Origin: an uncultured Gammaproteobacteria bacterium | GTDB taxonomy: Bacteria > Patescibacteriota > Patescibacteriia > UBA1558 > S5-K13 | Length of the DNA stretch: 44,786 nucleotides | Direction of reading: 5' to 3' | Assembly (NCBI GenBank): GCA_964634645.1 | Contig: CAZWKI010000004.1 | Span: 1 to 44,786, forward strand | Part shown: positions 9,842 to 44,786 of the stretch, piece after piece | Numbering within the stretch: the stretch's first letter is position 1 | Layout: each line of letters begins with the position of its first letter | Translations under genes and position numbers: made by a program | Notes under the pieces: model-generated | Told to the model about the DNA's origin: nothing | The model's input: the letters and a program-made list of their open reading frames with translations, nothing else | The model's database searches: none

Positions 9842-10057
9842 ATTTTTATTGATTTATTTGTTATTTATATAATACATTTATTGGTGCGTGTTTATTTCAA
9901 ATTTATTTCTTTGCCATTTTCCAAAGAACATGAAAATGATCTAAATACGACTCATAAAATTCTTTGTTTTTTATTCTTATTGCAAATGGCTCTTTTCCGA
10001 CTGATACAAATAGAACGCAATTATCATATACAGTTGCGCAAGGCTAAGAAGGTTATA

Positions 10058-10128: not shown

Positions 10129-10190
10129 GTAATTTGAGAGTATTGATTTTTTTATTGAAAAGAATAATATAAAAATAGAAAAGCAAATTT

Positions 10191-10760: not shown

Positions 10761-10774
10761 TTTTTATAGAAATT

Positions 10775-11290
10775 TTATCTTAATTGATATTTACAAGTTA
10801 GTGCTATTGCAAGAGCATCTGATGTATCGTCTTTTTTTGGAATAGATTTTAATTTTAGAATTATTTTTACCATTTCAGCAATTTGACGCTTGTCAGCTTT
10901 TCCATAAGATGTTATAGCTTGCTTTACCTGAAGAGGTGTGAACTCGTATATTGGAAGTTTGTTTTCTGATAATGTAAGAATTATTACACCCCGAGCATGT
11001 CCTACGTCCATTGCTGTTTTTACATTTTTACAAAAATATAATTTTTCAACGCCAACATATGACGGTTTGTATTTTTTTATTAAGAAATCCAATTCTTTGT
11101 GTATTGTGTTAAGTCTATTATTAAATTCAACGCCCGCTTTTGTTTCAATACAACCACAACTTATTAATTTTGCTTCTTTTTCATGTGTTATAAAAGCATA
11201 GCCAATTGTGGCTAAGCCGGGATCAATGCCCATTATGATCTTTGATTTATTTATAGTTTTTTGCATCTTTTTGTAATAACCAATAATCAA
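10775..11290 (-). CDS. ruvC: Holliday junction resolvase RuvC
   Basis: Motifs IMGIDPGLATIGYA, EKLYFCKN and DTSDALAIAL. The true start is probably an internal Met near MGIDPG. Confidence 0.9.
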   Translation of the reverse strand: MIIGYYKKMQKTINKSKIIMGIDPGLATIGYAFITHEKEAKLISCGCIETKAGVEFNNRLNTIHKELDFLIKKYKPSYVGVEKLYFCKNVKTAMDVGHARGVIILTLSENKLPIYEFTPLQVKQAITSYGKADKRQIAEMVKIILKLKSIPKKDDTSDALAIALTCKYQLR

Positions 11291-11378
11291 TAATCAAGTT
11301 CCAAACAATAATCAATAATCAATTATCAAATTTTCGATTATTAGTTATTGGAATTTGGTTATTATTTGATTATTGGTG
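11275..11378. repeat. Long AT-rich word-repetitive palindrome (hairpin) between yebC and ruvC
   Basis: Arms are built from aataatcaa / ttgattatt words. Pairings include 11300-11304 with 11353-11357, 11305-11310 with 11344-11349, and 11313-11319 with 11335-11341, plus outer arms. Confidence 0.6.
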
Positions 11379-11399
11379 CTTGGGTATTGGTTATTCTCA

Positions 11400-12101
11400 T
11401 TAATCAGCATTAGAATAATAATTAGCTACATCATCATCTTCTTCAAGTGCTTCAAAAAGTTTGTCCAATTTATCTGAGTTTTCAATATTTACTTTTGTTT
11501 TTGCAATATATTCTAATTCTGCATTATCAATTTCAATTAGATCTTTTATTTTGTCCTGAATTTTTTGCAAATTTTCCATTTGTGTAATAATTCTTATCCC
11601 GTCAACGGACTTTTCAATGTCATTTGCTCCAGCATCTATTATTGCAAGTTCTTGTTCGTCAGAAAGTTCTGTGTCTTTTAGATAAATAGCTCCAACTCTT
11701 TCAAATTGCCAAAGCACAGAATTTGATGCGCCAAGTGATCCGCCATGTTTTGATAAAATATGCCTTAAATCAGGAGCAGTTCTATTTTTGTTATCAGTTA
11801 CAACTTCTATTATAATGGCAACGCCATCTGGCCCATATCCTTCATAAGTAATTTCTTCAAGAGCATTTGCCTCTCCAGTACCAGATCCACGTGCAATAGC
11901 CTTTTCAATGTTATCTTTTGGAACAGAAAAGCTCCTAGCCTTATCAATTGCCATTCGAAGTTTGAAATTCATTTCAGGATCAGCACCACCACGGGCTGCA
12001 ATTTGTACGTTCTTTGTAAGTTTTGTAAAAACAGAAGATTTTTTTGAATCAACAAGAGCTTTTCTGTGTTTTGTTGTTGCCCATTTTGAGTGCCCAGACA
12101 T
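11400..12101 (-). CDS. yebC: YebC/PmpR family DNA-binding regulator
   Basis: The MSGHSKWATTKHRKA N-terminus is diagnostic. Length 233 aa. Confidence 0.9.
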   Translation of the reverse strand: MSGHSKWATTKHRKALVDSKKSSVFTKLTKNVQIAARGGADPEMNFKLRMAIDKARSFSVPKDNIEKAIARGSGTGEANALEEITYEGYGPDGVAIIIEVVTDNKNRTAPDLRHILSKHGGSLGASNSVLWQFERVGAIYLKDTELSDEQELAIIDAGANDIEKSVDGIRIITQMENLQKIQDKIKDLIEIDNAELEYIAKTKVNIENSDKLDKLFEALEEDDDVANYYSNAD

Positions 12102-12214
12102 ATTATTAGCTTTCAGCTTTTAGATTTCAGCTTTCAGCTCATTATTATTAAAACTTAGCTCTATTTTAGCAATATAATGTTGCAGTGTAAAGACATAAAC
12201 TATACAATATATAT

Positions 12215-13585
12215 ATGAAAAAAGACCAATTTAAAAATTTTGTATATGTTTTAATATTAGTAGCTGTAATTATTTTTGCTGTTTTTATAAGAATTCACAA
12301 TGTTTTAAAATATAATACTTATTGGGCTGATGATGGAGGAGCACACATTGATTATGTATATCAAATAGAAAAAAATCATAGACTGCCAGATTTTAAGACA
12401 AATTATTTGGCGTGGCATGAGCCAGGTTTTTATTTTTTGGGAGCTGCATGGAATATTTTTGGTTCTAAAATAGGATTTTATATTGGTCCAGACAATTATA
12501 ATTTTACAGAGCTTTTGAATGTAGGTATTTATTTAATTTTCCTTGCACTGGTTTGGATTTTTGCTTTTATTATATCTAATAAAAAAAAGTGGTTTGCACT
12601 TCTAATTACATTTCTTTTTTCAACACTATTTATAGGTGTAAAATTATCCAATTATATAAATAACGAATTGTTAAATCAGACAATGATATTGTTTTTAATA
12701 ATTTTATTTTTATATTGGAAATTACTAGACGACAAAAAATATTTAAAAGTTTTTTTGTTTTCAATTCTATTGGCAATTGCCTTTATTATAAAAATGACGG
12801 CATTTATAGCTCTTTTATCTGTGGCAATGATTTGGTTTATAAGTTTTTTATATAAAAGAAAAAAATATTTTATTTTTTATATTTTGATAGTTATATTTGT
12901 TTCTTTGGGGCTAAATGCTCCGTGGCTTATTCACAAAAAAAATACCTATGGAAGCGCTATCACAATAAATGCATTTGAAAAAGAGTCTCAGAGAATAATA
13001 AATAGTGATGGATGGAAATATTTTTTTAATTTTAATGACGATATATTTTTTGATAATCCATATTGGAGTGGCAATTTAAACTCATATTTTTCAATTCTTT
13101 TAAGTGATACTTTTGGAGATCATTATAATTTATTTAACAATCCGGATACTATATTTCAAGAAGAAAATAAAATTTTGCTTGATACAGGGAAGTATACAAA
13201 TCCTTATTTGTGGAATAAAATGATAAATGTAAATAGAATCGGATTATTTATATTTTTAATTTGGTTTTTTGGATTTCTATTGTTTTTAAAAGATTTATTT
13301 ATAAGGTTTTTTAAATATAAAAAAATAGATTTCTATGAATTGTTTTTATTGATTATACTTTTTGGGGGATGGGTTGCGCTTTTGTATAACAATTTAAAGT
13401 ATCCATATCTAGCAAGGGGAGTGCTTAAGGGTCACTTTATTTATTTTACATATCCGATTTTTGTGATTCTCTCTTATAAGACGCTTTATATACACATAAA
13501 AAATAAATTAATATTTTATTTAGTCTTAACTTTGCCAATAATTATTTATGTAATTATTGCGTGGCCAATTTTGTATGTTAAATAA
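12215..13585 (+). CDS. Polytopic GT-C type glycosyltransferase (ArnT/PMT, GT39/83-like)
   Basis: More than 10 predicted TM segments. An acidic DD motif (YWADDGGAH) sits in the first loop after TM1, as in ArnT/PMT-type enzymes. Confidence 0.45.
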   Translation: MKKDQFKNFVYVLILVAVIIFAVFIRIHNVLKYNTYWADDGGAHIDYVYQIEKNHRLPDFKTNYLAWHEPGFYFLGAAWNIFGSKIGFYIGPDNYNFTELLNVGIYLIFLALVWIFAFIISNKKKWFALLITFLFSTLFIGVKLSNYINNELLNQTMILFLIILFLYWKLLDDKKYLKVFLFSILLAIAFIIKMTAFIALLSVAMIWFISFLYKRKKYFIFYILIVIFVSLGLNAPWLIHKKNTYGSAITINAFEKESQRIINSDGWKYFFNFNDDIFFDNPYWSGNLNSYFSILLSDTFGDHYNLFNNPDTIFQEENKILLDTGKYTNPYLWNKMINVNRIGLFIFLIWFFGFLLFLKDLFIRFFKYKKIDFYELFLLIILFGGWVALLYNNLKYPYLARGVLKGHFIYFTYPIFVILSYKTLYIHIKNKLIFYLVLTLPIIIYVIIAWPILYVK

Positions 13586-21486: not shown

Positions 21487-22095
21487 TTAGATCTGACTTT
21501 CAAAAAATAAGTCTATTATAAAGTATGTTATAGCGTATGCAAAAATAGTTATTGCAAGTCCAAAAATAGCATTTTTTATCCTTGCCTTTGATTTTTTTAC
21601 CGTATCTTCATTTCCCCCAGCAGTCATCCATTGAATACCAGAAACTATTATTAAAATTAGGAATAATATACCTATAAAGGATAATATAGTTTTTATTATA
21701 TTACCAATTACTGTTGGTAAATCAACGTTTCCAGATCCATAACCTATTCCTCCCGCAACAGCGCCCATTATAGACCCAGCATTATTGATACCCGTAGGGA
21801 TAATATTGCCCCCACCACCTCCGTTTCCTGTTGGTGGACAGCATCTAGTATACTCATATTGATCGCTATCTGGAGCACCTGAAGCACCTAAACATTTGTT
21901 TGATACACAGCCTTGACAGTTAGTTTCTTTACAAAATCTACAGCTCCAGCCCTCAGTGCCAGGTGCTTGAGGTGTTCCGCAGGTATTTTCCGCGCCAAAA
22001 CAAATTGTCGCAAAACCAAACAAGAGAAAAAGATTTGTTATAATAATTATTTTTTTAAAAAAATATTTTTTGTTTTTTGTATTTAGACCCACCAT
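21487..22095 (-). CDS. VirB2/TrbC-like pilin paralogue 3 with an N-terminal 8-Cys module and a Gly-rich spacer
   Basis: After the signal peptide comes the 8-Cys segment CGTPQAPGTEGWSCRFCKETNCQGCVSNKCLG...RCCPP. This is followed by GNGGGGGN and a module identical to that of paralogue 2. Confidence 0.65.
   Translation of the reverse strand: MVGLNTKNKKYFFKKIIIITNLFLLFGFATICFGAENTCGTPQAPGTEGWSCRFCKETNCQGCVSNKCLGASGAPDSDQYEYTRCCPPTGNGGGGGNIIPTGINNAGSIMGAVAGGIGYGSGNVDLPTVIGNIIKTILSFIGILFLILIIVSGIQWMTAGGNEDTVKKSKARIKNAIFGLAITIFAYAITYFIIDLFFESQI
21550..21669. repeat. 120-bp perfect direct repeat, copy B (C-terminal module of pilin 3)
   Basis: Identical to 21092-21211. Confidence 0.85.
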
Positions 22096-23893: not shown

Positions 23894-24604
23894 TTATAAT
23901 TTATAAGAATCATTTAACAATGTTTCATTGTATACTGTACCTTTTAATAGTGTTTTTCTTACAAAATCTACTATTAAAAAAGCACATAAGCATATTATTA
24001 TTCCTATTATTGTCTGAACCATCATTGTTTTAGCGCTAGATATTTGGCTAGAATTACCATGAGAGGTAAGCATTTTTATTCCCGCTATTATGAAAAATAA
24101 AAGCGCAATACTTCCTATGAGCCCCATCAAATATTTAGCAATAATTATAGCTACATTTACTATGTCTGTCACGCTACAGTTTCCATCTTTAATACAGCTA
24201 ACAGGTTGATTAAATAATGTACCCGCACTAGTACCCGTACTATCATCTTCATCTTCTGCATTTGTAGTAGTAGGACAACATTTATTTGTTGTTCCGCTAC
24301 CACAAAGACCAGAAACACAACCCCATTTCGCACAATTAGAGCCACATTCTTTGCAAGAGTATGTTGGATATGAATGTTGACATTTAGCATTGGGTGGGCA
24401 ACATTGTTTAGTTGCTCCTCCACTACAAAGATTAGGGAAACAATCCCACGCTTCACAATTAGAGCCACATTCTGTGCAAAAATAATTTGGATGCTCATTT
24501 GAGCAAGTAGAGCCTTGTACATCAAAACAAAAACTAAACGAGACAATAAACAAAAGTAATGATGTACAAAAAATTATAATCTTTTTTAATTTAGAGAATT
24601 TCAT
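23894..24604 (-). CDS. VirB2/TrbC-like pilin paralogue 8 with a tandem-duplicated 8-Cys module
   Basis: Two consecutive 8-Cys units are present (CSNEHPNYFCTECGSNCEAWDCFPNLCSGGATKQCCP and CQHSYPTYSCKECGSNCAKWGCVSGLCGSGTTNKCCP). A divergent module follows: LMGLIGSIALLFFIIAGIKMLTSHGNSSQISSAK. Confidence 0.6.
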   Translation of the reverse strand: MKFSKLKKIIIFCTSLLLFIVSFSFCFDVQGSTCSNEHPNYFCTECGSNCEAWDCFPNLCSGGATKQCCPPNAKCQHSYPTYSCKECGSNCAKWGCVSGLCGSGTTNKCCPTTTNAEDEDDSTGTSAGTLFNQPVSCIKDGNCSVTDIVNVAIIIAKYLMGLIGSIALLFFIIAGIKMLTSHGNSSQISSAKTMMVQTIIGIIICLCAFLIVDFVRKTLLKGTVYNETLLNDSYKL

Positions 24605-28896: not shown

Positions 28897-28970
28897 GCAC
28901 TCGTAGCTTAATTGGATAAAGCACCTGGCTTCGGACCAGGGGACTGTGGGTTCGACTCCTACCGAGTGCG
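28897..28970 (+). tRNA. tRNA-Arg (anticodon UCG), CCA encoded at 28971-28973
   Basis: Hand-folded. Acceptor gcactcg/cgagtgc, anticodon arm cctgg-cttcgga-ccagg, T arm gtggg-ttcgact-cctac. Length 74 nt. Confidence 0.85.
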
Positions 28971-29107
28971 CCAAAATAATTGATTTTTTTACAATTTGTG
29001 ATAATCTTATATTAATTTCAATTTACAATTTTGTAATTTTTAATTTATTTATTATTTGTTTCTATAAATTGAAAATTGCAAAATAGTGAATTAAAAATAT
29101 TTTATGC

Positions 29108-29208: not shown

Positions 29209-29281
29209 GCGCCGTTAGCTCAGTTGGTAGAGCAGTTGCCTCTTAAGCAAACGGTCGCAGGTTCGAATCCTGCACGGCGTA
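29209..29281 (+). tRNA. tRNA-Lys (anticodon CUU), CCA encoded at 29282-29284
   Basis: Hand-folded. Acceptor gcgccgt/acggcgt (G-U first pair), D arm gctc-agttggta-gagc, anticodon loop ctcttaa, T arm gcagg-ttcgaat-cctgc. Confidence 0.85.
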
Positions 29282-29338
29282 CCACCCTTTGAGAGGTTCG
29301 AGAGACCTCAACACCTTGTCGTGGCAAGAACCATGAAA

Positions 29339-29416: not shown

Positions 29417-30427
29417 ATGGATAATATGATTATCAAAAGAAAAGACTTAATGAAAAAAATAGAGATTGGAAGGCCACATCTGGTACTACTTGGTGCTGGT
29501 GCAAGTAGAGCAGCATTTCCAAACGGAGATAAAAATGGAATTCAATTACCCCTAATGAATGATCTGTTTAATATTATTGATTTAGAATTTTTAATAGAAA
29601 AATATAACATCGACGTTCAAAATGATAATTTTGAAGAGTTCTTTAGTAATTTATATGAGCGTGAAGATAATAAAATAATTGCTAATGAGGTAGAAAAGGA
29701 AATTTTTAATTTTTTTAAAAAATTGGAGCTGCCAGAAGAACCAACTATATATGATTATTTAGTATTATCTCTAAGGAAAAAAGATGTTATAGCGACTTTT
29801 AATTGGGATCCATTTTTATGGTTAGCTGCTAGAAGAAATTATGGCGTTGTTGATTTGCCGCACCTAATTTTTTTACATGGGAATGTAGTGGTTGGATATT
29901 GCCATAATTGTAAAATAAAGGGCCAAATCAATTATGAATGCCCACAATGTGGTCAATTATATACCCCATCTCATCTTTTGTATCCGGTTAAGAAAAAAGA
30001 CTATGACTCTGATCCGGCTATCGCTGGAGAGTGGACTATGATAAAAGAATATATGAAACATGCATATATATTTTCAATCTTTGGTTATAGTGCTCCAACA
30101 ACAGATATAGAAGCAATGAATATTTTTAAAACTGCATGGGGAGGAACGGGCAATAGAAATTTTGAACAGATAGAATTTATCCATAAACCCAATAGTAGCG
30201 AAGATGATGTTATTAATCCCTGGAAAGATTTTATTCATTCTCATCATTATGATATTACAGATGATTTCTTTAAATCTATAATGAGTAGATATCCAAGAAG
30301 AACTTGCGATGCTTTTTGGGCAGCCACTATGGAAGTAAGATTCGTTGAAAATAATTACCCACCAAAAAATGTTGATTTAATAACTTTGCAAAATTGGTTT
30401 AGAAAATTTAAAGAATACGAGAATTAA
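29417..30427 (+). CDS. SIR2-family (sirtuin-like) NAD-binding protein with Cys4 zinc ribbon
   Basis: The motifs LLGAGASRAAF (GAGxS), ATFNWDP (TxNxD-like), FLHGN (catalytic His) and CHNC-x14-CPQC (Zn ribbon) are followed by IFGYSAPTTD. Their order and spacing match the sirtuin/SIR2_2 fold. Confidence 0.7.
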   Translation: MDNMIIKRKDLMKKIEIGRPHLVLLGAGASRAAFPNGDKNGIQLPLMNDLFNIIDLEFLIEKYNIDVQNDNFEEFFSNLYEREDNKIIANEVEKEIFNFFKKLELPEEPTIYDYLVLSLRKKDVIATFNWDPFLWLAARRNYGVVDLPHLIFLHGNVVVGYCHNCKIKGQINYECPQCGQLYTPSHLLYPVKKKDYDSDPAIAGEWTMIKEYMKHAYIFSIFGYSAPTTDIEAMNIFKTAWGGTGNRNFEQIEFIHKPNSSEDDVINPWKDFIHSHHYDITDDFFKSIMSRYPRRTCDAFWAATMEVRFVENNYPPKNVDLITLQNWFRKFKEYEN

Positions 30428-31000
30428 ATGATTAATAATGACATAAAATATAAATTTTTTTTGATTAGTCATCATGATAATAAACCCCATTTAATTTTTA
30501 CTATTAAGTTTGATAAAGATAATGTTTATTTTATTAATTCGGGATTCATAAAAAATTTTAAAACTAAGATTAGTTATCATACGCCTAGACTACCTAGCAA
30601 CAAATCTCAAGTACATTTCAAAGTAAACGATAGACGTATTAATGACGCTGATTTATGTTGTCCAGCGAATGAAATAAAGGGTGTGCGATATTTTGGTGGT
30701 AGTGGTACCCCATTAGATCAATTGATAAACTTACCAATTTTTAAAAAAGAAAAGAGGGGCGAAAAATGTTTTATCTTTGATAGTAGAAAATTACGCATGA
30801 GTCATTTATCAAGCATACAATGGTCATGGTTCTTTGTAGAGCCAGATCAAGAAGAATCATTATATAAACACCCTATTATAGATAATGGTGACAGTGAATT
30901 TTCAGAAAGTATGCATATTCAACTTATCAAAGAAACCATCCCCTGGGTTGGTATAGAATATATTAGAATAAGAGAAGAAAACCCCATATGGTATAAGTAA
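30428..31000 (+). CDS. Hypothetical protein translationally coupled to the SIR2-like gene
   Basis: The ATG directly abuts the SIR2 stop codon (TAAATG at 30425-30430). The protein is 190 aa with no TM segment and no motif I recognise. The pair shares the terminator at 31035-31066. Confidence 0.5.
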   Translation: MINNDIKYKFFLISHHDNKPHLIFTIKFDKDNVYFINSGFIKNFKTKISYHTPRLPSNKSQVHFKVNDRRINDADLCCPANEIKGVRYFGGSGTPLDQLINLPIFKKEKRGEKCFIFDSRKLRMSHLSSIQWSWFFVEPDQEESLYKHPIIDNGDSEFSESMHIQLIKETIPWVGIEYIRIREENPIWYK

Positions 31001-31034: not shown

Positions 31035-31066
31035 TAAAACTCTCGGAAATGAGTTTTTTTTGTTTT
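31035..31066 (+). terminator. Intrinsic terminator closing the SIR2 two-gene operon
   Basis: Stem aaaactc(31036-31042)/gagtttt(31051-31057) followed by a long T-run. Confidence 0.55.
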
Positions 31067-31132: not shown

Positions 31133-31549
31133 ATGGAAAAACGGATCACAGAAGATTTTGTAAAAAATGCAATAATAAAATGGCTTTCTGCAAATGGTTG
31201 GGGATATTTTCATTTTGGTGGTTTACATGACCATGGAGTTGATATCAAGGCGAAGCGTCATGGATATTCTAGATATTTTTTTATAGAAACAAAGGGAGAT
31301 GGAAGTAGGAGAGAAATGAATGAAAATTATTTTATTTATTCTCTTGGCCAGATTATTACAAGAATTAAAGATTCTAAAACAACAAGAAATTATTATGCTC
31401 TTGGATTACCAGAAAGTATATCAAAAATAGCAATTAGAAGAATTCCATGGCAAGTATCAAAAAAACTTTTACTTTTTATTCTTTCAGTAAATAAACAAGG
31501 TAAGGTTCAACAATATAGTTGGCAAGATCTAAAAAATTTACAAGAATAG
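31133..31549 (+). CDS. Small PD-(D/E)xK-fold nuclease-like protein
   Basis: HGVDIKAKRHGYSRYFFIETKG gives a D...ExK arrangement after an alpha-helical N-terminus, like Hjc, Mrr and YraN-type restriction-endonuclease folds. Confidence 0.45.
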   Translation: MEKRITEDFVKNAIIKWLSANGWGYFHFGGLHDHGVDIKAKRHGYSRYFFIETKGDGSRREMNENYFIYSLGQIITRIKDSKTTRNYYALGLPESISKIAIRRIPWQVSKKLLLFILSVNKQGKVQQYSWQDLKNLQE

Positions 31550-31576
31550 ATTAGTTTTTTATAAATATTATATATA

Positions 31577-33205
31577 ATGTCTATCTCTAAAGAATTATCT
31601 TATTTATTAGGTTTAATGGTTGGTAGGGGCCATATCTTTTCTAATAGCAACATATTAGCTATTGAGTTTTCTCACACAAATGAATTTTCTTATGGTATCG
31701 CTCATTGCCCAACATGTGGTTATTTAGCTACTAAACAGGGTGATGGTTTAATATGTAAAAATAAAAATTGTAAAAAATCAGTTAATTCAAATAATAGAAA
31801 AATTTATAACCAACCCTTGTCAACAGTATCATCTTTAAAGAATGTAATTATACCCTTTTTATCTAATTCTATTGAGGCAGACTATGACATTTCCGGTAAT
31901 AATGCTTTAACGCTTTTGATAATAGATTTTCATAAAAATAAAAAGGATTTCGACAATATAAAAACTTATTTAAACAATGAGTCTAGTTTTGACAGTTTTC
32001 ACATTCCAGACATTATTAAAAAATCTGACGAGTATTTAAAAATAGAATTTATCAATGGCTTATTAGATACAGCCGGGTTTCCATCTCCTGGTGGTTGGTT
32101 AAATCGTGACGGTAAAAATGGTCATGGTCGTATGAGAGTTTATTTTCAATTTGTAAGAAATTGGTATTTGCCCGTTGAAGTAGACAATTTTCTTAGAAAA
32201 GAATTTTCTTTACCTATTCATACTATTGATTGGGGTCATCCAAATATTCGAGATGCAAACATGGAAGATTATTTTAATGCTAGGCCAACTAGCTGGAGCA
32301 GAGAACATCAGGTAAAATTTTTTCCAGAGTATTATAAAACATTTCATTTTAGAATTTCTTATAAACAAGAATTATTTAAAGAACTAATTACTCATAATGA
32401 AAAAGTGATTTTTACATCCCGAGATGATTGGTTTCCTCCTAGCTCTATTGGAATTAAAAAAATTAAGGCATATCATCCAGGAGAAGAAGATGTAAGAATC
32501 CCAGAACCTGCAAGGAAACACTTTAATGCGTTTTGGCAGATTAATTTAGCCATGGGTTGTGAATATATAACTGGTCTAGTTGATAAAGCAAAAAATAAAG
32601 AGGCTTTTATGCTGACGGGAGAAGATAAAAAGATTGATATTGAAAAGATCAAGAAGTTATTTGATATACAAAGTACGAAAATGCAGAAAGAAATTTTTGC
32701 AAAATATGAATCTGTGGAGAAAAAACAATCATTGAAACAATGTTTTGTAAAAAATGAAAAGGAAAAACAGCTATATCTACCATTAACAGAGTATTTAAAA
32801 ATATATATAAAAGAACACTATGATGAGGAATCTGACGTTTTTGATACGTCAGCTAATAACTTAAACTTATTTTTAAAAAACAAAAATAAAGAACTCTTTG
32901 GTGTATTTGATTATTGTGAAAAATTTAGAATTAAACCAGATGTAGTAGGTTTTTTAGTTAACTCCAAAAAAATTATTTTCGTTGAGGCAAAAATAATTGC
33001 GCTTGATTTAAAGTCTCTTGGGCAATTAATAGGCTATTGTTTTGTAGCTAAGCCCGAAGAAGCAATTCTTGTTTCATCTCAGCGACCGTCAATCTCACTG
33101 ATTAAAATTTTGAAAGCAAGACCAGATTTATTGGAATATGATGATGGTAAGAAAATTAAGCTAGGTGTCTGGGAGAACAACAAGATTTCTTTAATAGAAT
33201 TATAA
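31577..33205 (+). CDS. Multidomain protein: LAGLIDADG-like double motif with inserted zinc ribbon, plus C-terminal NucS/RecB-like PD-(D/E)xK nuclease domain
   Basis: YLLGLMVGRGHI (degenerate first LAGLIDADG motif; compare I-DmoI YLLGLIIGDGG) and FINGLLDTAGF (second motif). Zinc ribbon CPTCG...CKNKNC. The C-terminal KPDVVGF...IFVEAK...GQLIGY gives D, ExK and QxxxY motifs. Confidence 0.5.
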   Translation: MSISKELSYLLGLMVGRGHIFSNSNILAIEFSHTNEFSYGIAHCPTCGYLATKQGDGLICKNKNCKKSVNSNNRKIYNQPLSTVSSLKNVIIPFLSNSIEADYDISGNNALTLLIIDFHKNKKDFDNIKTYLNNESSFDSFHIPDIIKKSDEYLKIEFINGLLDTAGFPSPGGWLNRDGKNGHGRMRVYFQFVRNWYLPVEVDNFLRKEFSLPIHTIDWGHPNIRDANMEDYFNARPTSWSREHQVKFFPEYYKTFHFRISYKQELFKELITHNEKVIFTSRDDWFPPSSIGIKKIKAYHPGEEDVRIPEPARKHFNAFWQINLAMGCEYITGLVDKAKNKEAFMLTGEDKKIDIEKIKKLFDIQSTKMQKEIFAKYESVEKKQSLKQCFVKNEKEKQLYLPLTEYLKIYIKEHYDEESDVFDTSANNLNLFLKNKNKELFGVFDYCEKFRIKPDVVGFLVNSKKIIFVEAKIIALDLKSLGQLIGYCFVAKPEEAILVSSQRPSISLIKILKARPDLLEYDDGKKIKLGVWENNKISLIEL

Positions 33206-33209
33206 AAAT

Positions 33210-33713
33210 ATGGATAAAAAAATGTTATCTTTATCGATTAAAAAATGGCTTGGGAAATTTTTAGAACAAAAATATTCCCAAGACTATGATATTATCGATG
33301 TCATTATCCCAGAATCTAATTTATCTAAACTTCCAATATCATCAATTAAATCTTGTGAAAATTATTCATCTTGGGAATTTAAACCAGATGTTCTTGGGAT
33401 ATTAAAAAATAAAAATAACTCAAAAATAGAGTTAGTTTTAGTAAATAGGTCTACTAGTTCTTTGAGCCTTAAGGAAATAGGTGAAATATATTGTTATTCA
33501 AAACTAGTAAATGCAAAGATATCATTTTTGATATCAGCAAATGGTGTGTCCAATGAAGTTAATATTTTATTAGTTGATGAAAAAATAAGAAATAAACTAC
33601 TTAACTATTCCTTGGACAATGAAATTATAATTTGTTCATGGGATAAAAATAAAGAAGGTATAAATGAAGATTTAGTCATTCCTCTAGATAAAAAAGGATT
33701 TATATCTTTGTGA
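33210..33713 (+). CDS. Paralogue of the C-terminal nuclease domain of the preceding gene with a degenerate active site
   Basis: KKWLGKFLEQKYSQDYDIIDV...FKPDVLGIL...LVLVNRS...GEIYCY aligns by eye with EYLKIYIKEHYDEESDVFDT...IKPDVVGFL...IFVEAKI...GQLIGY. The ExK residues are replaced (N-R-S). Confidence 0.45.
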   Translation: MDKKMLSLSIKKWLGKFLEQKYSQDYDIIDVIIPESNLSKLPISSIKSCENYSSWEFKPDVLGILKNKNNSKIELVLVNRSTSSLSLKEIGEIYCYSKLVNAKISFLISANGVSNEVNILLVDEKIRNKLLNYSLDNEIIICSWDKNKEGINEDLVIPLDKKGFISL

Positions 33714-33714: not shown

Positions 33715-34524
33715 TTATTTTCGTTTCCAATATATACAAATATATTCGTGAACTTTATTAAATCTGAATACATAAGGATAGCCCAATGTTTTCATATTGT
33801 TGTATTCTTTTTGTCTATCCCAAATTACATACTCTTCTAATTCAAATCCGATTTCTCTCATTATTCTTGTTTGATCTTCATGAAAAGGATAAAACTTATC
33901 TTTTTTTCTTATATCCATTACAACACTGCAGCATCTTTTATTTGGTTTTAATGCTCTATATACCCCCCTATAAATATTTTTTAAATCTTCTAAAAAATCT
34001 TCGTAACTAACCGTATTACCAATGTCCTTTTTTGAACCAGAATAATTTTTTTTATTTTTATTGTCCGCGGTTCTTTTCATATTTAATATATCCCAATATG
34101 GTGGAGACGTAACGACCAAATCAACTGAGTTGTCTTTAATATATTTATTTAAATTTCTAGCATCGTCATTATATATTTCTGGCTGAAAAAAATCTTTCCT
34201 TTTTTTACTAAAGAGATCTTCTTGTATTATTTCAACTCTTTTTTTTGCTATTTTACAATATTCTTTGTTTAAGTCTATTCCAATGCCTCTCTTGCCTAAT
34301 TTATAGGCAGCTTTAAGTGTTGACCCTATTCCTAAAAAAGGATCTAATATTATTTCACCAGGATTTTTTGTATATATGTTGATCAATTTTTCCGCTAATT
34401 GCTCTGGGAACATTGCCGGATGTTTAAGCTTCCTCTCTTCTGAAGTTTTATTTATTTCTCTCCAAATAGTAAACGAGTTTTGCAACCATTCTTTCCCAGA
34501 AAAATTATTCATTCTTTCTGCCAT
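33715..34524 (-). CDS. N4/N6 DNA methyltransferase (N6_N4_Mtase family) with SAM-binding block before the SPPY block
   Basis: HPAMFPEQLAEKLI and LDPFLGIGST (SAM-binding) are in the N-terminal half. DLVVTSPPY (catalytic motif IV) is in the C-terminal half. Confidence 0.8.
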   Translation of the reverse strand: MAERMNNFSGKEWLQNSFTIWREINKTSEERKLKHPAMFPEQLAEKLINIYTKNPGEIILDPFLGIGSTLKAAYKLGKRGIGIDLNKEYCKIAKKRVEIIQEDLFSKKRKDFFQPEIYNDDARNLNKYIKDNSVDLVVTSPPYWDILNMKRTADNKNKKNYSGSKKDIGNTVSYEDFLEDLKNIYRGVYRALKPNKRCCSVVMDIRKKDKFYPFHEDQTRIMREIGFELEEYVIWDRQKEYNNMKTLGYPYVFRFNKVHEYICIYWKRK

Positions 34525-34528
34525 AAAG

Positions 34529-35566
34529 TTATTTTGTTACTTTTACTAAAAATAATATTTCATTTGTTTTTGTTTTAGATCCGTCTTGATTTATCGCTCT
34601 ATATCTTTTATGTTCTTTATTAAAAATTATAACCTTGCCCCTCTTTGATAAGATTTTTTTTATTTTTTCTAATGGTATTATACCCTCATTATTATAACTT
34701 AGAATAATAAATTTAGTTTTTGCTTTTTGGATTAGGTTATCAAGTGCATTACACGCTTCATTTTTCATTGAGTATTTTGATTTTTGATGTTCATATGGTC
34801 TCATACCAGACAATCCATAAATACTTGGTTTTTTGTCAAACCACCCTTCGGCAATTAACTCCAAAAAGAAGTAATTTGACGCAAACTGTCTAGAATTATA
34901 TGGTGGATCTAAATACAATATATCAGATTTAACTTTCGTAATTATATCGTTAGCATCACACTTGAAAGATTTATTTTTATTTCTACTAGAAATAATTTCT
35001 GGAACGCTAAGTCTCATTTTTTTAAGAGCTCTGTCGTCCCATTTTTTTAAAAAAGCTGCATAAGTTCCAGTTACATTACTTACTAGATTAATAGCCTCTA
35101 ATAATGATGTCAATAAATAATAATATTCTCCATCACTTATCAATTCATTTCTTTTCCACATGTGAATTTGTTTTCTTATAGAGTCCACTTTCTGAGCATT
35201 TTCTATAGATAAGTATTTACGTTTGTTATTGTTTATTGGAGAATAATTTTTTGTTATAAATCCTATTGACGGTTTTATGCTATTTAAAAATTGTATGATA
35301 TCATCCGTTGTTTTTACGTTAATAGTCTTTTTTAATTTTGTAAATTTAGGTTTATGATTCAATTGAATGCTACAGTGAGCAATTGCATGCGCAAATTCTA
35401 AGAAATCATTAGAATAAACTGTATACCCCAATCTTTTAAAGTGTTTTCCAACTGCTGACGTTCCACTAAAAATATCAAAAAAAATAGACCCAGATTTTAG
35501 ATTCAGGGTATTAACGGCATCTTCTATATAATTTAAGAGTTTGGTTTTGCATCCGTAATATCGCAT
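34529..35566 (-). CDS. D12-class (Dam-like) N6-adenine DNA methyltransferase
   Basis: MRYYGCKTKLL N-terminus, FFDIFSGTSAVG (motif I) and LYLDPPYNSRQF (motif IV DPPY). Confidence 0.75.
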   Translation of the reverse strand: MRYYGCKTKLLNYIEDAVNTLNLKSGSIFFDIFSGTSAVGKHFKRLGYTVYSNDFLEFAHAIAHCSIQLNHKPKFTKLKKTINVKTTDDIIQFLNSIKPSIGFITKNYSPINNNKRKYLSIENAQKVDSIRKQIHMWKRNELISDGEYYYLLTSLLEAINLVSNVTGTYAAFLKKWDDRALKKMRLSVPEIISSRNKNKSFKCDANDIITKVKSDILYLDPPYNSRQFASNYFFLELIAEGWFDKKPSIYGLSGMRPYEHQKSKYSMKNEACNALDNLIQKAKTKFIILSYNNEGIIPLEKIKKILSKRGKVIIFNKEHKRYRAINQDGSKTKTNEILFLVKVTK

Positions 35567-35668: not shown

Positions 35669-36988
35669 TTAATTATCTAATGTTATCCTTCTATCTCTCA
35701 ACACCAGCCTATTTTTCAAATTACTCATTAATTCTCTCTTCTCAAGTATTGTTCCTTGTTGAAGAATGTATTTAGCATAATCTTTCATGTTAATTTGTTT
35801 TTGATTTTCATGGTCATTTATTTTTACTCCAAGCACTCCAGTTCTAAAGCTATGATATCTTTCAACTTCATGTTGTACTTTTTCTTTCATTCCTAATTTA
35901 TCTAAGTCTAGTGTATCTATCATTTCGGTTATTTGTTCTATTAACCTATCTTCTCTAATGCTTTCTGATTTACAATTTAAATCTTTACCTCTTGTACAAT
36001 TGTAATAAATATAACGGTGAGTATTACCGTTTTTTTGTTTCTTAAATTTTTCAACTGCTGTAATACCACTTCCACATAATCCACAGGTCATTAGCTTAGT
36101 GAATGCAAATTCTCTATCTTGTGTTTTACCAACATACGCATCAGTAATTTTTTCTTGTACTTTATCAAATAGCTCTTTTGATATTATTGGTTCATGATTT
36201 CCTTTATACCATGTACCACTACTTCTTGGATATTCAAATGTTCCGGTATAGAAACTATTATGAAGTATCATATAAATATGACTTAGTGTTACATAATATC
36301 CATTTTTTGATTTAAATTTTAAATTATCCTTTAACCATCTATATAGTTTCCTACCACTATAACTTTCATAAGCAACTTTTTCAAACATTTGTTTTATTAT
36401 GGGTGCTCTTATTGGATCTACAAGTATCTGACATTTTTTATCAACTCTATTTTGGTTCAAGTATCCTATTGGAGCGGGTCCTGGCCACAATCCCATTTCT
36501 ACTCTTGTCTTAAGACCACGTTTTACATTTACTCCTTTATTATCGTTTTCTAGTTTTGCTTGTGATCCTAAAATCATAAGAAGAAACTTTTCATTTGGAT
36601 TGTTAGTAAATTTCTGACTGTATGTCCTTATCTCTACTAACTTACCTTGATCCATTAAATCTACTAGTGCTCCAAGATCTCCTGCATTTCTACTTAACCT
36701 ATCAGGTGCCCAACAAAGTATTCCTTGAAACAATCCATTTCTTAGATCATTTATTAGTGTATTAAATACATTTCTCTGCCCAGTGTCTTTAGCACTGTGT
36801 GATTCACGTCTAATTTCTACAATGTTTAGATTTTCTTTTCTTGCTAGTTCTAGCATTTCTTTGATTTGGCTATCTATGGATAGAACCTGCTTTTCTTCTG
36901 ACTCTGTTGATTTTCTTGCATAGAGGCAATACTTCAGAGGAATGGTCTCTAATGCCTCTGAAACACCCTCATTTTGTTCTATTTTCAT
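35669..36988 (-). CDS. Large serine recombinase
   Basis: YCLYARKSTESEEKQ contains the catalytic Ser. It is followed by the resolvase domain, the recombinase domain and the zinc ribbon CGLCGSGITAV...YYNCTRG. Confidence 0.9.
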   Translation of the reverse strand: MKIEQNEGVSEALETIPLKYCLYARKSTESEEKQVLSIDSQIKEMLELARKENLNIVEIRRESHSAKDTGQRNVFNTLINDLRNGLFQGILCWAPDRLSRNAGDLGALVDLMDQGKLVEIRTYSQKFTNNPNEKFLLMILGSQAKLENDNKGVNVKRGLKTRVEMGLWPGPAPIGYLNQNRVDKKCQILVDPIRAPIIKQMFEKVAYESYSGRKLYRWLKDNLKFKSKNGYYVTLSHIYMILHNSFYTGTFEYPRSSGTWYKGNHEPIISKELFDKVQEKITDAYVGKTQDREFAFTKLMTCGLCGSGITAVEKFKKQKNGNTHRYIYYNCTRGKDLNCKSESIREDRLIEQITEMIDTLDLDKLGMKEKVQHEVERYHSFRTGVLGVKINDHENQKQINMKDYAKYILQQGTILEKRELMSNLKNRLVLRDRRITLDN

Positions 36989-40164: not shown

Positions 40165-41049
40165 ATGAATCATAACATTTCTAATTCTTTTATAGATCAA
40201 GTGTCAAGGGGACCATCTTCTACAAAGACATCTCAGGTTTCTAATATTCAAACACATATTCAGAGTATTTTTGGATCAGGTTATCATACATTTCTTCAAG
40301 GATCTTATAAAAATGATACAGCGATATTGGATATTAATGATGTCGATATTGTGGTTATAAGGCTAAATACTTATAGTGGCTTATATTCTCCTTTTGCACA
40401 GGGCAATCCCTTAGTTCATTGGAATATTATATTTTCAGAAATAGAAGAAAAACTAAAACATCAAAATCTCTATGATTGGAGTATAGAGAGAGGAAATAAA
40501 TGTATAACAGTAACGACTTCTAATTTTAAAGCCGACATTGTCCCATCCGTTCAAATAGACAATGATTATAGTGTTGATCCTATAGCGATTTTTTCATTTA
40601 AAGATGGTATGGAAAAGATTAATTATCCGCGAACTCATTACAATAATGGAGTAAATAAAAATCAGCTAACAAACGGGAATTATAAATTTATAGTTAGAAT
40701 GTTAAAAAGCTGGGCAAAGAATTATTTTAATGATAAAAATATTATATCTTCTTATCAAATCGAATCACTTGTGTATGGGGTAGAAAATAATAGGTTCAAT
40801 AATAATTTAGTTCTCTCATTTATTGATGTATCTAGTCAAATATATAATAAACTTAAGCAAAGAGAATCTATTCCAATTAAAATTTTAAGTGTTTGTGGGT
40901 ATGAAGATATTACAACTAATTGGCCATTAGAATATAGAAAAACAGTAGTCAATCAATTAGAAAACTCTATTGCTTTGACAGTCAAGGCATATAAAGCAAC
41001 TGATTCAACAATTGCAAACGATTTATTTAAAAAAGCATTTAATTTATAA
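40165..41049 (+). CDS. SMODS/CD-NTase-like nucleotidyltransferase (CBASS cyclase candidate)
   Basis: LQGSYKNDTAILDINDVDIVV gives the GS...DxD motif, and FKADIVPS supplies the third acidic residue. The following helical region (FIVRMLKSW) fits minimal SMODS-type nucleotidyltransferases. Confidence 0.6.
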   Translation: MNHNISNSFIDQVSRGPSSTKTSQVSNIQTHIQSIFGSGYHTFLQGSYKNDTAILDINDVDIVVIRLNTYSGLYSPFAQGNPLVHWNIIFSEIEEKLKHQNLYDWSIERGNKCITVTTSNFKADIVPSVQIDNDYSVDPIAIFSFKDGMEKINYPRTHYNNGVNKNQLTNGNYKFIVRMLKSWAKNYFNDKNIISSYQIESLVYGVENNRFNNNLVLSFIDVSSQIYNKLKQRESIPIKILSVCGYEDITTNWPLEYRKTVVNQLENSIALTVKAYKATDSTIANDLFKKAFNL

Positions 41050-41051: not shown

Positions 41052-41675
41052 ATGAAGAGCCACAATCTCTCTATAAAATTTTATATCTTTTTTATTTTAG
41101 TTTTCTTATACCCAGCTATTTATTTATCAGGCGTGACCTTAAGTTTAATGAATCTTATGTCTATAAAAAACGCCTATATTAATAATTTAATAAATTTAGG
41201 TGTTTTAGAATTTTTAACTCCAGTAGCATTATTATTATTGTTTTTTTATATAACCAATCATTGGCTTTGGAAATTAATTAATAAAATACTCGGCATCCCG
41301 ATAATTTCAGGAAGATATAAAGGTGTTTTAAAAAGCACTTATGCTGAAAATAGCTCTCATGATATTATTTTAGAAATAGATCAAACATTAACTCAAATTG
41401 AAGTTTATTTTTATACAGAAAAATCTAAATCGCATAGTATAGTTAGCGGTCTATTTAAAAATGATCAGGGCGCTTGGTCTATGTATTATATATATGAAAA
41501 TAAAACTCGTGTAATGGATGATAATTCTGACATGAAAGATCATGAGGGAGTCTCTGTAGTTGATATTAATGAGAGATCTTTAAGTGGGTATTATTTTAAT
41601 GATTTAAGAAATAGGGGCCGATGTGGAAATTTTAACGTAGAATTTGTCAGCAAGAGATTGCTTAAAAGATATTAA
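41052..41675 (+). CDS. Two-TM, beta-strand-rich effector (S-2TMBeta / Cap15-like)
   Basis: Two N-terminal TM helices are followed by a beta-rich C-terminal domain (ISGRYKGVLKSTY...ILEIDQTLTQIEVYFY...SGYYFND...GNFNVEFV). The start is 2 nt after the cyclase stop. Confidence 0.5.
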   Translation: MKSHNLSIKFYIFFILVFLYPAIYLSGVTLSLMNLMSIKNAYINNLINLGVLEFLTPVALLLLFFYITNHWLWKLINKILGIPIISGRYKGVLKSTYAENSSHDIILEIDQTLTQIEVYFYTEKSKSHSIVSGLFKNDQGAWSMYYIYENKTRVMDDNSDMKDHEGVSVVDINERSLSGYYFNDLRNRGRCGNFNVEFVSKRLLKRY

Positions 41676-41770: not shown

Positions 41771-42814
41771 ATGCCAAGAATAAAAGAAAATGTAAAAAAA
41801 TTATTACTTAAATCTAAGGATTCTGCTTTGTTGGCTGTTGAAATTTATAATAAACCCAGAACGTCATTTCGTTCTTATGGCTACATAGTTTTAATGCAAA
41901 TTGCATGGACATCTTTATTTCATGCAATTTTTGAAAAACAAAACATAAAGTATTTTTATAAAAAGAATAGCGTTAGATATGAAAGAATATCGGGCGATAA
42001 AAAAAGTTGGGATATAACTAAGTGTATCAAAGAGTATTATAAAAAAAGTAATATACCCGAAAGAAAAAATTTAGAATTTTTTATCGAAATTAGAAATAAA
42101 ATAGAGCATCGTTTTTTGCCAGAAATTGATAAAGATATCTTTGGTGAATGCCAAGCTATGCTAATGAATTACGAAGAATTATTAGCAAAAGAATTCGGAG
42201 AAAGTGAATCTATTAATGAAAATTTAGTTTTTGCTTTACAGTTTTCTAAAATTCTTCATGATACTCAGGAAGAAATTGTTAAAAGAAAAACAACAAAAGA
42301 ATATAGAGATATTTCTAGTTTTGTATCTCAATACAGGAAGGGCTTGAAAAGAGATGTTCTTTCAAGTTTGAAATATAATTTTAGAGTTTATTTAATACCA
42401 AAAATAGCAAATCACAAAAGCTCTTCAGATTTCACTTTAGAATTTATAAAACTTGATCCATTGAATCCACAAAAGACACAACAATTTAGTCATCTTATCG
42501 CTGCAATGAAAGAGGTGCGTGTACCTATGAATGGTATTAAGGCTGGTGAAGTAGCAAAAAAAGTTTATGATGCATTAAAAGATAAGATGCCATCTGGATG
42601 GAAATTTAATCCATCCAGTCATCACGTACGTTGTTATAAGTATTACAAAGTAAGACCTCCAAAAGGAAGTGTGAGTCCAGAAAAAACCAATTTAAAATAT
42701 TGTTTCTACGACTCAACCTTTGATCAATATGGATACACAGACGAGTGGGTAAAGTTTTTAATCAAGAAACTTTCAGATCAATCTGAGTATAAAAAGGTTA
42801 TGGCAGTAAAATAA
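41771..42814 (+). CDS. DUF3644-like protein
   Basis: The N-terminal DSALLAVEIYNKPRTSFRSYGYIVLMQIAWTSLFHAI resembles the DUF3644 signature as I remember it. No catalytic motif recognised. Confidence 0.35.
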   Translation: MPRIKENVKKLLLKSKDSALLAVEIYNKPRTSFRSYGYIVLMQIAWTSLFHAIFEKQNIKYFYKKNSVRYERISGDKKSWDITKCIKEYYKKSNIPERKNLEFFIEIRNKIEHRFLPEIDKDIFGECQAMLMNYEELLAKEFGESESINENLVFALQFSKILHDTQEEIVKRKTTKEYRDISSFVSQYRKGLKRDVLSSLKYNFRVYLIPKIANHKSSSDFTLEFIKLDPLNPQKTQQFSHLIAAMKEVRVPMNGIKAGEVAKKVYDALKDKMPSGWKFNPSSHHVRCYKYYKVRPPKGSVSPEKTNLKYCFYDSTFDQYGYTDEWVKFLIKKLSDQSEYKKVMAVK

Positions 42815-42869
42815 GTGATTATTTACAATACTCATTTGTTACCAGTTTGTCAACTATTCTGAAAAGCTG

Positions 42870-44507
42870 TTATCGTGTCTCGTTTGTCTCATTCTGCATT
42901 TTAGACCCGACCGATGTGCCTAATTTATAATGCCAAAAAGATCTCAAGAAAGCCCATGGACATTGTATACACATAGTTGCGAGAGCACGCCAGTGTACCA
43001 GAATTAAACTTTCAGGAATTTTGCCGACCGAATTGGCAGCGCGAAGCGCGGAAAGGTATGGAAACACTGGCTCGCCGCGCACGGCGCGGCTCGCCAAGCG
43101 CAGGTTCGAGTCAAAGATTTCTTTGGCAGCAACCTTCTTTTGAAGAAGGTTGTTATCCCTTGTGATTTTGACGAGGTTTGAAGCGACTTTTATCCATTCT
43201 TTCATCGGTTCGAGCCAATCATTCTGCTTTTGTTCAATCCGCGCCATTTTCTCTTCCAGCGACTTCTTTTCGGAGAGTAAGACGGCTTTCTGTTCTCGAT
43301 AGTCCTCACTCTCAATATCTTGTTCTAAATAGCCGTCCAGAAGTCGCTGGAGTTTGATTTGTATAGCGCGGATTTTGTTTTGGCTTTCCTGAACAAAAGC
43401 AGAAACGGATTGGGCGGACTTTTCTTTGTCAGCTTCTGCCATTTTCAAAAGTTTTTCCGCCCAATCCGCACGCAAAGAAAATTTTTGAAGCAGAGAGGAA
43501 ATTTGCTTGTCCAATTCCTCTTGGCGAATACAGGGTTCGGGACATTTGATTGCTTTGTTCTTTTTCGTGCAGTGGTAATAAATATAATCGTGAGTATTGC
43601 CATTCTTTTGCTTTTTAACCCTGTATTCGCCAGTAATGGACATTCCGCAAGTGCCACATTTCAATAGTCCGCAAAAATCTCGCGGTTCATACTTTGTTTT
43701 GTGGTGAGGCCGTCCTCTCTGCTTCAAAACCTCTTGGACTTTGTCAAAAATTTTCTTTGCGATGATTGGCTCGTGCTTGCCTTCGTGCAATTCTTTGGAA
43801 TAGCGAAATAATCCTGTGTAAAACGGATTTGAAAGGATAAAAGTCGCCCTCGTCTTGTGGATTCTCTTTCCGCCACGGGACATAATCCCGCGTTGCGCCA
43901 AAAAGTCGGAAATATCCTCAAGCCGCGAATTGCCCTCTGCGTATAACTCAAAGGCCCCGCGAATGATTTTTGCTTTCTTCCTATCCACCACTACTGATTT
44001 TGTGCGGCTGTCATTTATGTAGCCGATTGGCGCGGGGCCAGGATATTCTCCGCGCTTCACTTTTTGGCGCAAGCCACGCTTCGTGTTTTCGGAAAGAGAA
44101 TCAACATAGTATTTGCTTTGCCCAAATACAATGTTCAACATAAATTTTCCTTGCGGGGTATTTTCGAACCACAAAGTTGGAAATTTCAAACTGGCTAATT
44201 TACCAATGTCCAAAAGATAAATAATACGCCCGCCGTCCACGGAATTGCGCGCCAATCTGTCTGCGTGCCAAGCCAAAATTCCGTTGGCCTCGCCTTGCTC
44301 AATTTTGTTCAGCATTTCGCTAAATATCGGTCTGCCCGAAATTTTGGCGGATTGCTTCTCTATCAAAACATCTATCACATTCAGATTTTCTTGCTTGGCA
44401 AAGGCGCGCAATTCTGCGATCTGGTCTTCAATAGACCTAACTTGCTTATCTTCCACATCAGTGGACTTGCGGGCGTAAAGGAAAAATTTATGTTGTTCCA
44501 TATTCAT
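42870..44507 (-). CDS. Large serine recombinase (GC-richer paralogue); the annotated C-terminal tail is probably not native
   Basis: FFLYARKSTDVEDKQ contains the catalytic Ser, and the zinc ribbon is CGTCGMSITGE...YYHCTKK. The protein is colinear with the 35669-36988 protein up to ...SNLRL. The last ~80 residues are read through the inverted repeat and its flank. Confidence 0.85.
   Translation of the reverse strand: MNMEQHKFFLYARKSTDVEDKQVRSIEDQIAELRAFAKQENLNVIDVLIEKQSAKISGRPIFSEMLNKIEQGEANGILAWHADRLARNSVDGGRIIYLLDIGKLASLKFPTLWFENTPQGKFMLNIVFGQSKYYVDSLSENTKRGLRQKVKRGEYPGPAPIGYINDSRTKSVVVDRKKAKIIRGAFELYAEGNSRLEDISDFLAQRGIMSRGGKRIHKTRATFILSNPFYTGLFRYSKELHEGKHEPIIAKKIFDKVQEVLKQRGRPHHKTKYEPRDFCGLLKCGTCGMSITGEYRVKKQKNGNTHDYIYYHCTKKNKAIKCPEPCIRQEELDKQISSLLQKFSLRADWAEKLLKMAEADKEKSAQSVSAFVQESQNKIRAIQIKLQRLLDGYLEQDIESEDYREQKAVLLSEKKSLEEKMARIEQKQNDWLEPMKEWIKVASNLVKITRDNNLLQKKVAAKEIFDSNLRLASRAVRGEPVFPYLSALRAANSVGKIPESLILVHWRALATMCIQCPWAFLRSFWHYKLGTSVGSKMQNETNETR
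42997..43109. repeat. 113-bp perfect inverted repeat, arm A (inside the recombinase 3' end)
   Basis: By my manual base-by-base comparison, the reverse complement of 44552-44664 is identical to 42997-43109. Confidence 0.9.
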
Positions 44508-44551
44508 ATTATTTTATTAGGCAAAGCAAATACTTAAAATCGCAAGGGATT

Positions 44552-44664
44552 TCGAACCTGCGCTTGGCGAGCCGCGCCGTGCGCGGCGAGCCAGTGTTTC
44601 CATACCTTTCCGCGCTTCGCGCTGCCAATTCGGTCGGCAAAATTCCTGAAAGTTTAATTCTGGT
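44552..44664. repeat. 113-bp perfect inverted repeat, arm B (upstream of the recombinase start)
   Basis: See arm A. The interior between the arms is 43110-44551. Confidence 0.9.
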
Positions 44665-44786
44665 GCGTTTGTTTGACGAAATCCGAACCTTTTTTGAACG
44701 GAACTGACGGCGCGCTTCGCGCACCGAACTGAACGCTCGGGCGGGCAAAAAGGAAGGGGGTTGGGGGGAAGGAATTTTTGCCCGCC

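Follow-up and report, generated by a model that had tools for sequence, protein, structure and literature searches.

The 44,786-nucleotide stretch of DNA analysed here (hereafter, the window) spans positions 1 to 44,786 of contig CAZWKI010000004.1 (forward strand; assembly GCA_964634645.1), from an uncultured bacterium placed by GTDB in Patescibacteriota. It carries two abutting genes, A and B (Table 1), that the original prediction had described as a two-gene module in which a compact SIR2-like protein is coupled to a novel sensor, regulator or toxin/antitoxin partner. In our best reading, gene A is a horizontally mobile gene for a self-contained SIR2-fold enzyme, which probably consumes nicotinamide adenine dinucleotide (NAD+) and is probably conflict-related, and it stands beside an independent orphan gene; we give this reading a probability of about 0.6. 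Very probably, A is a standalone gene of SIR2 fold and does not form a conserved pair with B. What remains of interest is a large, unannotated family of standalone SIR2-like proteins and, as a lesser point, an orphan beta-rich protein.

Genes A and B in other genomes

No gene B homolog was found in 80 genome loci of the gene A family (hereafter, family A), searched by BLASTP and with a gene B family hidden Markov model (HMM), nor in the loci of the 8 closest homologs, 16 viral loci and 2 plasmid loci, which gives 0/106 family A loci with gene B overall. In the other direction, the family A HMM had no match in the loci encoding gene B relatives (0/9), and both HMMs recovered their own genes as positive controls in the same run. 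The genes around close relatives of gene A were compared as well: P0002 (67% identity to A) lies after a NERD-domain gene and before an unrelated 327-aa (amino acid) gene, P0003 (65%) lies before a sigma-70 gene, and P0005 (59%) is followed by a 433-aa gene after a 310-bp gap. Because the two families do not co-occur in either direction, a sensor/regulator or toxin/antitoxin relation is a property of neither, and the proposed two-gene module did not hold; A+B is at most a local, one-off arrangement. Beyond adjacency, nothing supports a functional link between A and B at this locus.

Open reading frames (ORFs) were called in the best 80 family A loci, and the four nearest genes on each side were clustered. 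The 521 neighbouring ORFs fell into 489 clusters, the largest of which was present in 5/80 loci, and genes on the same strand within 20 bp of the family A gene were found in 12/74 downstream and 10/76 upstream cases. Family A has no conserved neighbour or operon partner and is a standalone gene. Its recurrent neighbours include MmeI-type restriction-modification (RM) enzymes, integrases, Fic, reverse transcriptase, RhuM, S24 peptidases and a UvrA-like ATPase, and a Pfam and PADLOC scan of the 127 immediate neighbours detected AbiEii-type ATPases, methylases, Mrr and HNH proteins, together with MADS components, AriA, prokaryotic Argonaute (pAgo) and PDC candidates. Family A is often, but not always, located in defence or mobile islands.

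Some individual associations can be recorded from these loci. The PADLOC pAgo model matched 2/127 immediate neighbours, and the MADS models mad2, mad3 and mad8 matched 2–3 of them. At positions 9429–13020 of locus L008 (European Nucleotide Archive contig ctg853975, from a 4.1 Mb genome), the family A gene lies about 2.4 kb from a DSR-like, 1215-aa protein with a Pfam SIR2_2 domain, placing two different SIR2-type genes in one neighbourhood.

Predicted fold and conserved residues of the gene A protein

The gene A protein is a single domain that combines a Rossmann core, a helical insert, a zinc ribbon and a conserved C-terminal HHY/PRR region. The NAD-pocket motifs and the Cys4 zinc ribbon noted in the original prediction were all found (GAGAS at residues 26–30, FNWD at 128–131, LHG at 153–155, CHNC at 162–165 and CPQC at 175–178), with C162, C165, C175 and C178 as the zinc cysteines and the ribbon directly after the catalytic His.

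Searches at the sequence level returned little. Comparisons with Pfam, NCBIfam, PADLOC and PHROG gave nothing, or zinc-ribbon noise only. Pfam SIR2 (PF02146) and SIR2_2 (PF13289) were absent among the gene A matches listed at E ≤ 1, and both were also absent among the 25 most-matched Pfam families at this threshold when 36 relatives were scanned singly. The sole defence-model signal was a marginal one, to PADLOC Aga_SIR2 (E 0.0015), in 2/36 relatives. When the family profile was searched against PDB sequences, the top match was Sir2Tm (1yc5) at a non-significant E of 0.16, in an alignment that places the family LHGN on the catalytic His and the first Cys on the first zinc Cys. Independently, hhalign against E. 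coli CobB (E 0.17) paired FNWD with QNID and LHGN with HMHGE. Each of these two alignments is non-significant and useful for register only. A methionyl-tRNA synthetase zinc-ribbon match, obtained when the single gene A sequence was compared with PDB sequences, was discarded as noise.

The SIR2 assignment comes from the predicted structure. An AlphaFold2 model, for which a 36-sequence alignment served as input, was confident, with a mean predicted local distance difference test score (pLDDT) of 89.6 and a predicted template modelling score (pTM) of 0.90. In a Foldseek search of this model against the PDB, the top 17 matches were all SIR2-fold proteins, including Sir2-Af1, the SIR2 protein of SIR2-HerA, DSR2, ThsA and SIRT6 (E 1.5e-5 to 7e-3; probability 0.95–1.0), and non-SIR2 folds entered the list only from E ~0.03. 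The template modelling scores (TM-scores) against SIR2 structures were modest (0.3–0.5), which would make family A a divergent SIR2 branch. The earlier 'SIR2-like' label is therefore supported at the level of the predicted fold, but by no curated sequence model; judged from the model, family A belongs to the SIR2 superfamily at the fold level and falls outside the Pfam SIR2 and SIR2_2 sequence models.

Conservation was examined in 120 relatives. Thirty positions are invariant overall, among them G26, G28, S30, N129, D131, H154, C162, C175, F222, Y224 and D230 (120/120), and position 178 is Cys in 119/120. The motifs GAGAS, FNWD, LHG and FGY are thereby kept, fully or almost so, across the set. 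Position 165 is more variable (Asp in 58, Cys in 32 and His in 26 relatives, with 3 sequences as exceptions), these three residues all being able to ligate metal. Outside the NAD pocket, Y112/D113, R120/K122/D123, K194/Y196 and PRR293–295 are invariant and HHY276–278 is nearly so. This large number of conserved non-pocket residues suggests a fixed ligand or substrate, or alternatively conserved self-regulation. The FR and FGE motifs of CobB are both missing from the gene A protein, and the string FGE occurs anywhere in the sequence in just 5/120 relatives. The FGE loop of sirtuins holds the acyl-lysine peptide; because this peptide-binding loop is absent, the gene A protein is probably not a canonical protein-lysine deacylase.

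The best fold matches to gene A are canonical sirtuins (Sir2-Af1, 1ici/1m2n; Sir2Tm, 1yc5; E. coli CobB). Like these, the gene A protein is a single domain in the 250–340 aa size class and has GAGxS, (Q/F)N(I/W)D, a catalytic HG and a zinc ribbon right after the catalytic His, and its Cys4 form of that ribbon is as in deacylase sirtuins. It differs from them in lacking both the FGE loop for the substrate and the FR motif of the cofactor loop and in having no significant Pfam SIR2 match. At the family level, zinc ligand 2 is usually Asp or His instead of Cys, and there is an extra C-terminal region, unique to the family, carrying the invariant or nearly invariant PRR and HHY residues. In addition, family A is patchy, mobile and island-borne, unlike a housekeeping gene; a housekeeping deacylase, which had been raised as an alternative, found no support given the patchy spread, the plasmid-borne members and the variable neighbourhoods.

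Among defence proteins, gene A resembles ThsA (Thoeris), DSR2 and the SIR2 protein of SIR2-HerA in its predicted SIR2 fold (TM ~0.4–0.5) and in its defence-island context. Its motif following the central strand is of the GYS..D type (not GTS), as in defence-type SIR2_2 proteins. Unlike the ThsA, DSR2 and SIR2-HerA proteins, however, it has a zinc ribbon, is 336 aa long and has no PADLOC match to these systems. It was correctly described beforehand as devoid of a TIR, HerA, pAgo/APAZ or STAND partner and of a DSR-type extension. Whereas Thoeris has a ThsB TIR partner and a SLOG domain on ThsA, neither TIR nor SLOG is present in gene A, its neighbours in the window or the listed recurrent neighbours of the family, and the HerA of SIR2-HerA (Nezha) is likewise absent from the window flanks and the listed recurrent neighbours. 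DSR1 and DSR2 are ~1000-aa proteins with a C-terminal sensor region, while family A members are 300–367 aa long without the ~700-aa sensor extension. With SPARSA (short pAgo with SIR2-APAZ), the shared signals are the marginal Aga_SIR2 match and the rare pAgo neighbours of the family, but gene A has no APAZ domain and the window has no pAgo. The gene A protein matched none of the named defence systems.

Spread of family A and its possible role

A search at E ≤ 1e-3 over clusters of 90% identity gave 4584 relatives for family A, and the 120 relatives examined are single-domain proteins of 300–367 aa (median 338) without Pfam annotation. At least 579 loci were confirmed by a pattern scan of one genome per species. 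The best 80 of these at least 579 loci span many bacterial phyla and also include archaea (Methanolinea and one uncultured archaeon), with 41–49% identity to gene A, except for one Saccharibacteria relative at 65%. The patchy distribution indicates that the family was shaped by horizontal transfer. Family members were found on eight plasmids, where those annotated are named "hypothetical protein". In Legionella pLPL, the member has umuDC on one side and a type I-F CRISPR-Cas locus on the other, and the member on a Vibrio coralliilyticus plasmid is flanked by a SLATT-containing cluster and McrBC. A further 16 members are on IMG/VR contigs, so that family A is occasionally carried by prophage-like contigs; no homolog was found in sequenced phage genomes.

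Several anti-phage systems have SIR2-fold NADases as their central effectors. In the reading that we prefer, the gene A protein would bind NAD+ and consume it as an NADase or an ADP-ribosyl transferase, and it would probably act as a single-gene conflict effector of the anti-phage or abortive-infection type. To our knowledge, all characterised SIR2 defence NADases depend on a sensor that is either fused to them or supplied by a partner (SLOG/TIR, HerA, pAgo or the DSR C-terminal region). Control of the gene A protein would presumably be internal, involving Y112/D113, R120/K122/D123, K194/Y196, HHY276–278 and PRR293–295. Gene B, for its part, landed directly downstream of A in this genome and is no family-level sensor, regulator or antitoxin. 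The specific role of NAD+-consuming defence effector is a tentative assignment for gene A, to which we give somewhat less than even odds. A bolder form of it is doubtful, namely that family A is a widespread, unannotated single-gene immune system, a minimal SIR2 enzyme with a zinc ribbon that would itself detect infection and then either deplete NAD+ or ADP-ribosylate a conserved target, and that gene B separately represents a new beta-rich fold in defence islands.

Several observations weigh against a self-contained conflict enzyme beside an independent gene. At the level of sequence, the connection to SIR2 is marginal (E 0.16 and 0.17 for the two sirtuin alignments; Aga_SIR2 at 0.0015 in 2/36 relatives). 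A mean pairwise identity of ~50% across phyla, with 30 invariant positions, is unusual for a defence gene, and such conservation is more readily explained by a fixed substrate than by a phage sensor that diversifies. Ordinary housekeeping genes are common among the neighbours of family A, and any enrichment of defence genes among them is a qualitative impression. No publication on the family turned up when the literature was searched by accession or topic. Lastly, the TAAATG junction is compatible with a local functional A-B link.

This junction is also the starting point for the view that A and B form a genuine lineage-specific system, with A as an NAD-depleting effector and B as a newly recruited sensor, regulator or antitoxin. 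The two genes abut on a shared strand with a single hairpin and U-run after both, and both families occur in defence or mobile contexts, with gene B relatives near Abi_alpha, HsdM and DUF262-HNH genes. However, abutting genes are common in compact genomes, none of the 106 family A loci has B and none of the nine B loci has A, the closest A relatives listed (59–67% identity) have unrelated downstream genes, and B relatives occur without a same-strand upstream gene. We consider a lineage-specific pair quite improbable. The locus carries a negative lesson in this respect, since the abutment of genes in a compact, AT-rich genome is no evidence of a functional pair.

The conservation of family A bears more directly on a different explanation, in which A is an accessory enzyme that modifies, in an NAD+-dependent manner, a fixed target of cellular or plasmid origin and is carried by mobile DNA for regulation or maintenance and not for immunity. 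This would cover a non-canonical deacylase or an ADP-ribosyltransferase acting on protein, nucleic acid or a small molecule. The very high cross-phylum conservation, with its many invariant residues outside the NAD pocket, agrees with such an enzyme, as do the sirtuin-like zinc ribbon in canonical position, the mixed neighbours that include housekeeping genes and the lack of a PADLOC model for the family. It fits less well with the absence of the FGE peptide-binding loop of canonical sirtuins, with the patchy spread and frequent flanking RM, CRISPR, MADS, PARIS or Abi genes, and with the lack of a conserved operon partner or target gene; overall, we regard it as unlikely. It is far less probable that A lacks catalytic activity and serves as a SIR2-fold scaffold or binds a ligand, its motif likeness being unaccompanied by NAD+ chemistry. 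Even though no curated SIR2 model detects any member and the Foldseek TM-scores are modest (0.3–0.5), the residues of the NAD pocket and the catalytic site (GAGxS, N, D, H and GYS..D) are invariant in 120/120 relatives, which is not expected for a dead enzyme.

If gene A does encode a self-contained conflict enzyme, family A would be the smallest self-sufficient SIR2 defence module; otherwise it could represent a new NAD+-dependent modification with a conserved target. Either outcome would clarify how SIR2 proteins are controlled without an accessory sensor. The family, with thousands of partnerless members of ~335 aa, is invisible to current annotation and defence-finder models, and its description closes an annotation gap for many genomes and plasmids, including Legionella pLPL.

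Gene B and the surrounding window

The gene B protein had been described as beta-rich and devoid of a recognised motif, and both points stand: its AlphaFold2 model, which is confident (pLDDT 82.5, pTM 0.81), is built from 13 beta-strands with a few short helices, and there was no family match in Pfam, NCBIfam, PADLOC or PHROGs. The model had no match in the PDB by a fold search (best E 0.024, TM ~0.2) and no structural match in BFVD. A word-indexed search with the protein returned only itself, while an exhaustive phmmer search of 1.84 billion representatives gave nine matches, five of them below 1e-10. Full-length relatives are 185–215 aa long with 26–48% identity. Two further relatives came from a profile search and four loci from a metagenome scan. 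Relatives number about a dozen, and their existence makes gene B a real, though very rare, gene. At some loci the relatives follow a GIY-YIG-like ORF, an Abi_alpha gene, or a DUF262/HNH-like gene with a small membrane ORF, and others are alone or divergent from hsdM. Gene B is an independent, rare accessory gene that is adjacent to gene A in this genome only.

One homolog of 181 aa (locus L108, positions 5001–5902) overlaps a 119-aa cysteine-rich ORF by 4 bp. On one side it has a DUF262/HNH-like gene and on the other a HigB/HigA-like pair accompanied by an ImmA/IrrE-type peptidase, all of these domain labels being read from the translations. The locus is a defence or mobile context without a SIR2-like gene. 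Residues 45–81 of the gene B protein (about 30560–30670 in the window) weakly resemble the last strands of HYR Ig-like repeats, with matches to more than 10 of the repeats in P0127, a surface protein of 2628 aa. An HYR Ig-like domain was rejected for gene B, as the match covers 37 residues in a single beta-hairpin and is too short.

Table 1 Positions of genes A and B, of the adjacent features and of accessory elements in the window.
Feature	Position	Strand	Description
tRNA-Arg	28897–28973		Upstream of gene A
tRNA-Lys(CTT)	29209–29284	+	Detected by ARAGORN and Rfam; border between core genes (left) and accessory genes (right)
Gene A	29417–30427	+	ORF, 336 aa; standalone protein of predicted SIR2 fold
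Gene B	30428–31000	+	ORF, 190 aa; beta-rich, very small family, without known fold
Hairpin and U-run	31036–31066	+	AT-rich; possible weak intrinsic terminator 3' of gene B
Three co-directional genes	31133–33713		138, 542 and 167 aa
Two DNA methyltransferases	33715–35566	−	Convergent with the three preceding genes
Large serine recombinase	35669–36988	−	Resolvase, Recombinase and Zn_ribbon_recom domains
SMODS nucleotidyltransferase	40165–41049		First gene of CBASS-like pair
Cap15-type effector	41052–41675		Cyclic-dinucleotide receptor; directly follows the SMODS gene
High-GC stretch	42800–44786		Extends to the end of the window
Large serine recombinase	42870–44507	−	Resolvase, Recombinase and Zn_ribbon_recom domains

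The two ORFs and their TAAATG junction were exactly as first described, with the gene A stop codon TAA at 30425–30427 and the gene B ATG directly after it. Gene A begins 133 bp past the tRNA-Lys. The terminator that had been placed at 31035–31066 was confirmed in part: a hairpin with a 7-bp stem and an 8-nt loop is present at 31036–31057, followed by UUUUGUUUU, and its folding free energy is −9.2 kcal/mol (z = −2.6 vs shuffles), but the hairpin was not called by a consensus terminator scan because it has fewer than three GC pairs. A weak terminator 3' of gene B is plausible, and genes A and B are probably co-transcribed in this genome.

The proposed tRNA-Lys hotspot fared similarly. The accessory, defence-rich region does start directly after the tRNA-Lys; however, a search for a tRNA-Lys-derived, att-type direct repeat downstream found none, only AT-rich chance repeats, and the term 'hotspot' therefore rests on position. 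Left of the tRNAs are genes for a pseudouridine synthase, guanylate kinase, nucleotidyl transferase, NrdD and pilin-like proteins. To the right, A and B are followed by three unannotated co-directional genes, then by two convergent DNA methyltransferases, a large serine recombinase, an EEP nuclease and a ParB-methylase, and beyond these by a SMODS+Cap15 pair of the cyclic-oligonucleotide-based antiphage signalling system (CBASS), DUF3644 and a second large serine recombinase. Defence-type genes are thus close by, as had been noted, in the form of the methyltransferases, the ParB-methylase, the CBASS pair and the two large serine recombinases.

The 138-, 542- and 167-aa proteins had no Pfam, PADLOC, NCBIfam or PHROG match. 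Each has a D...E-x-K-like motif (VDIKAK..FIETKG; KPDVVGF..FVEAK; KPDVLGI), and a 'KPDV.G' segment, seen as DNA repeat D4, is common to the 542- and 167-aa proteins. These three genes and the methyltransferases on which they converge may form an unannotated restriction-like cluster. The two serine recombinases bracket the segment with the ParB-methylase, CBASS and DUF3644 genes, an arrangement that points to a single integrated element, or two of them, nested on the right-hand side of A and B.

In the core region, two proteins (21487–22095 and 23894–24604, minus strand) have C-terminal T4SS_pilin (PF18895) domains. Taken with a GC content of ~28% and with the closest relative of gene A being in Saccharibacteria, these pilin domains hint at a host of the Patescibacteria/CPR type. 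The GC content is uniform in the window (~22–35%) until about position 42,800, where it rises from ~26% to 41–50% and stays there to the end, covering the second serine recombinase; this stretch may have been acquired recently, or it may reflect a join made in the assembly.

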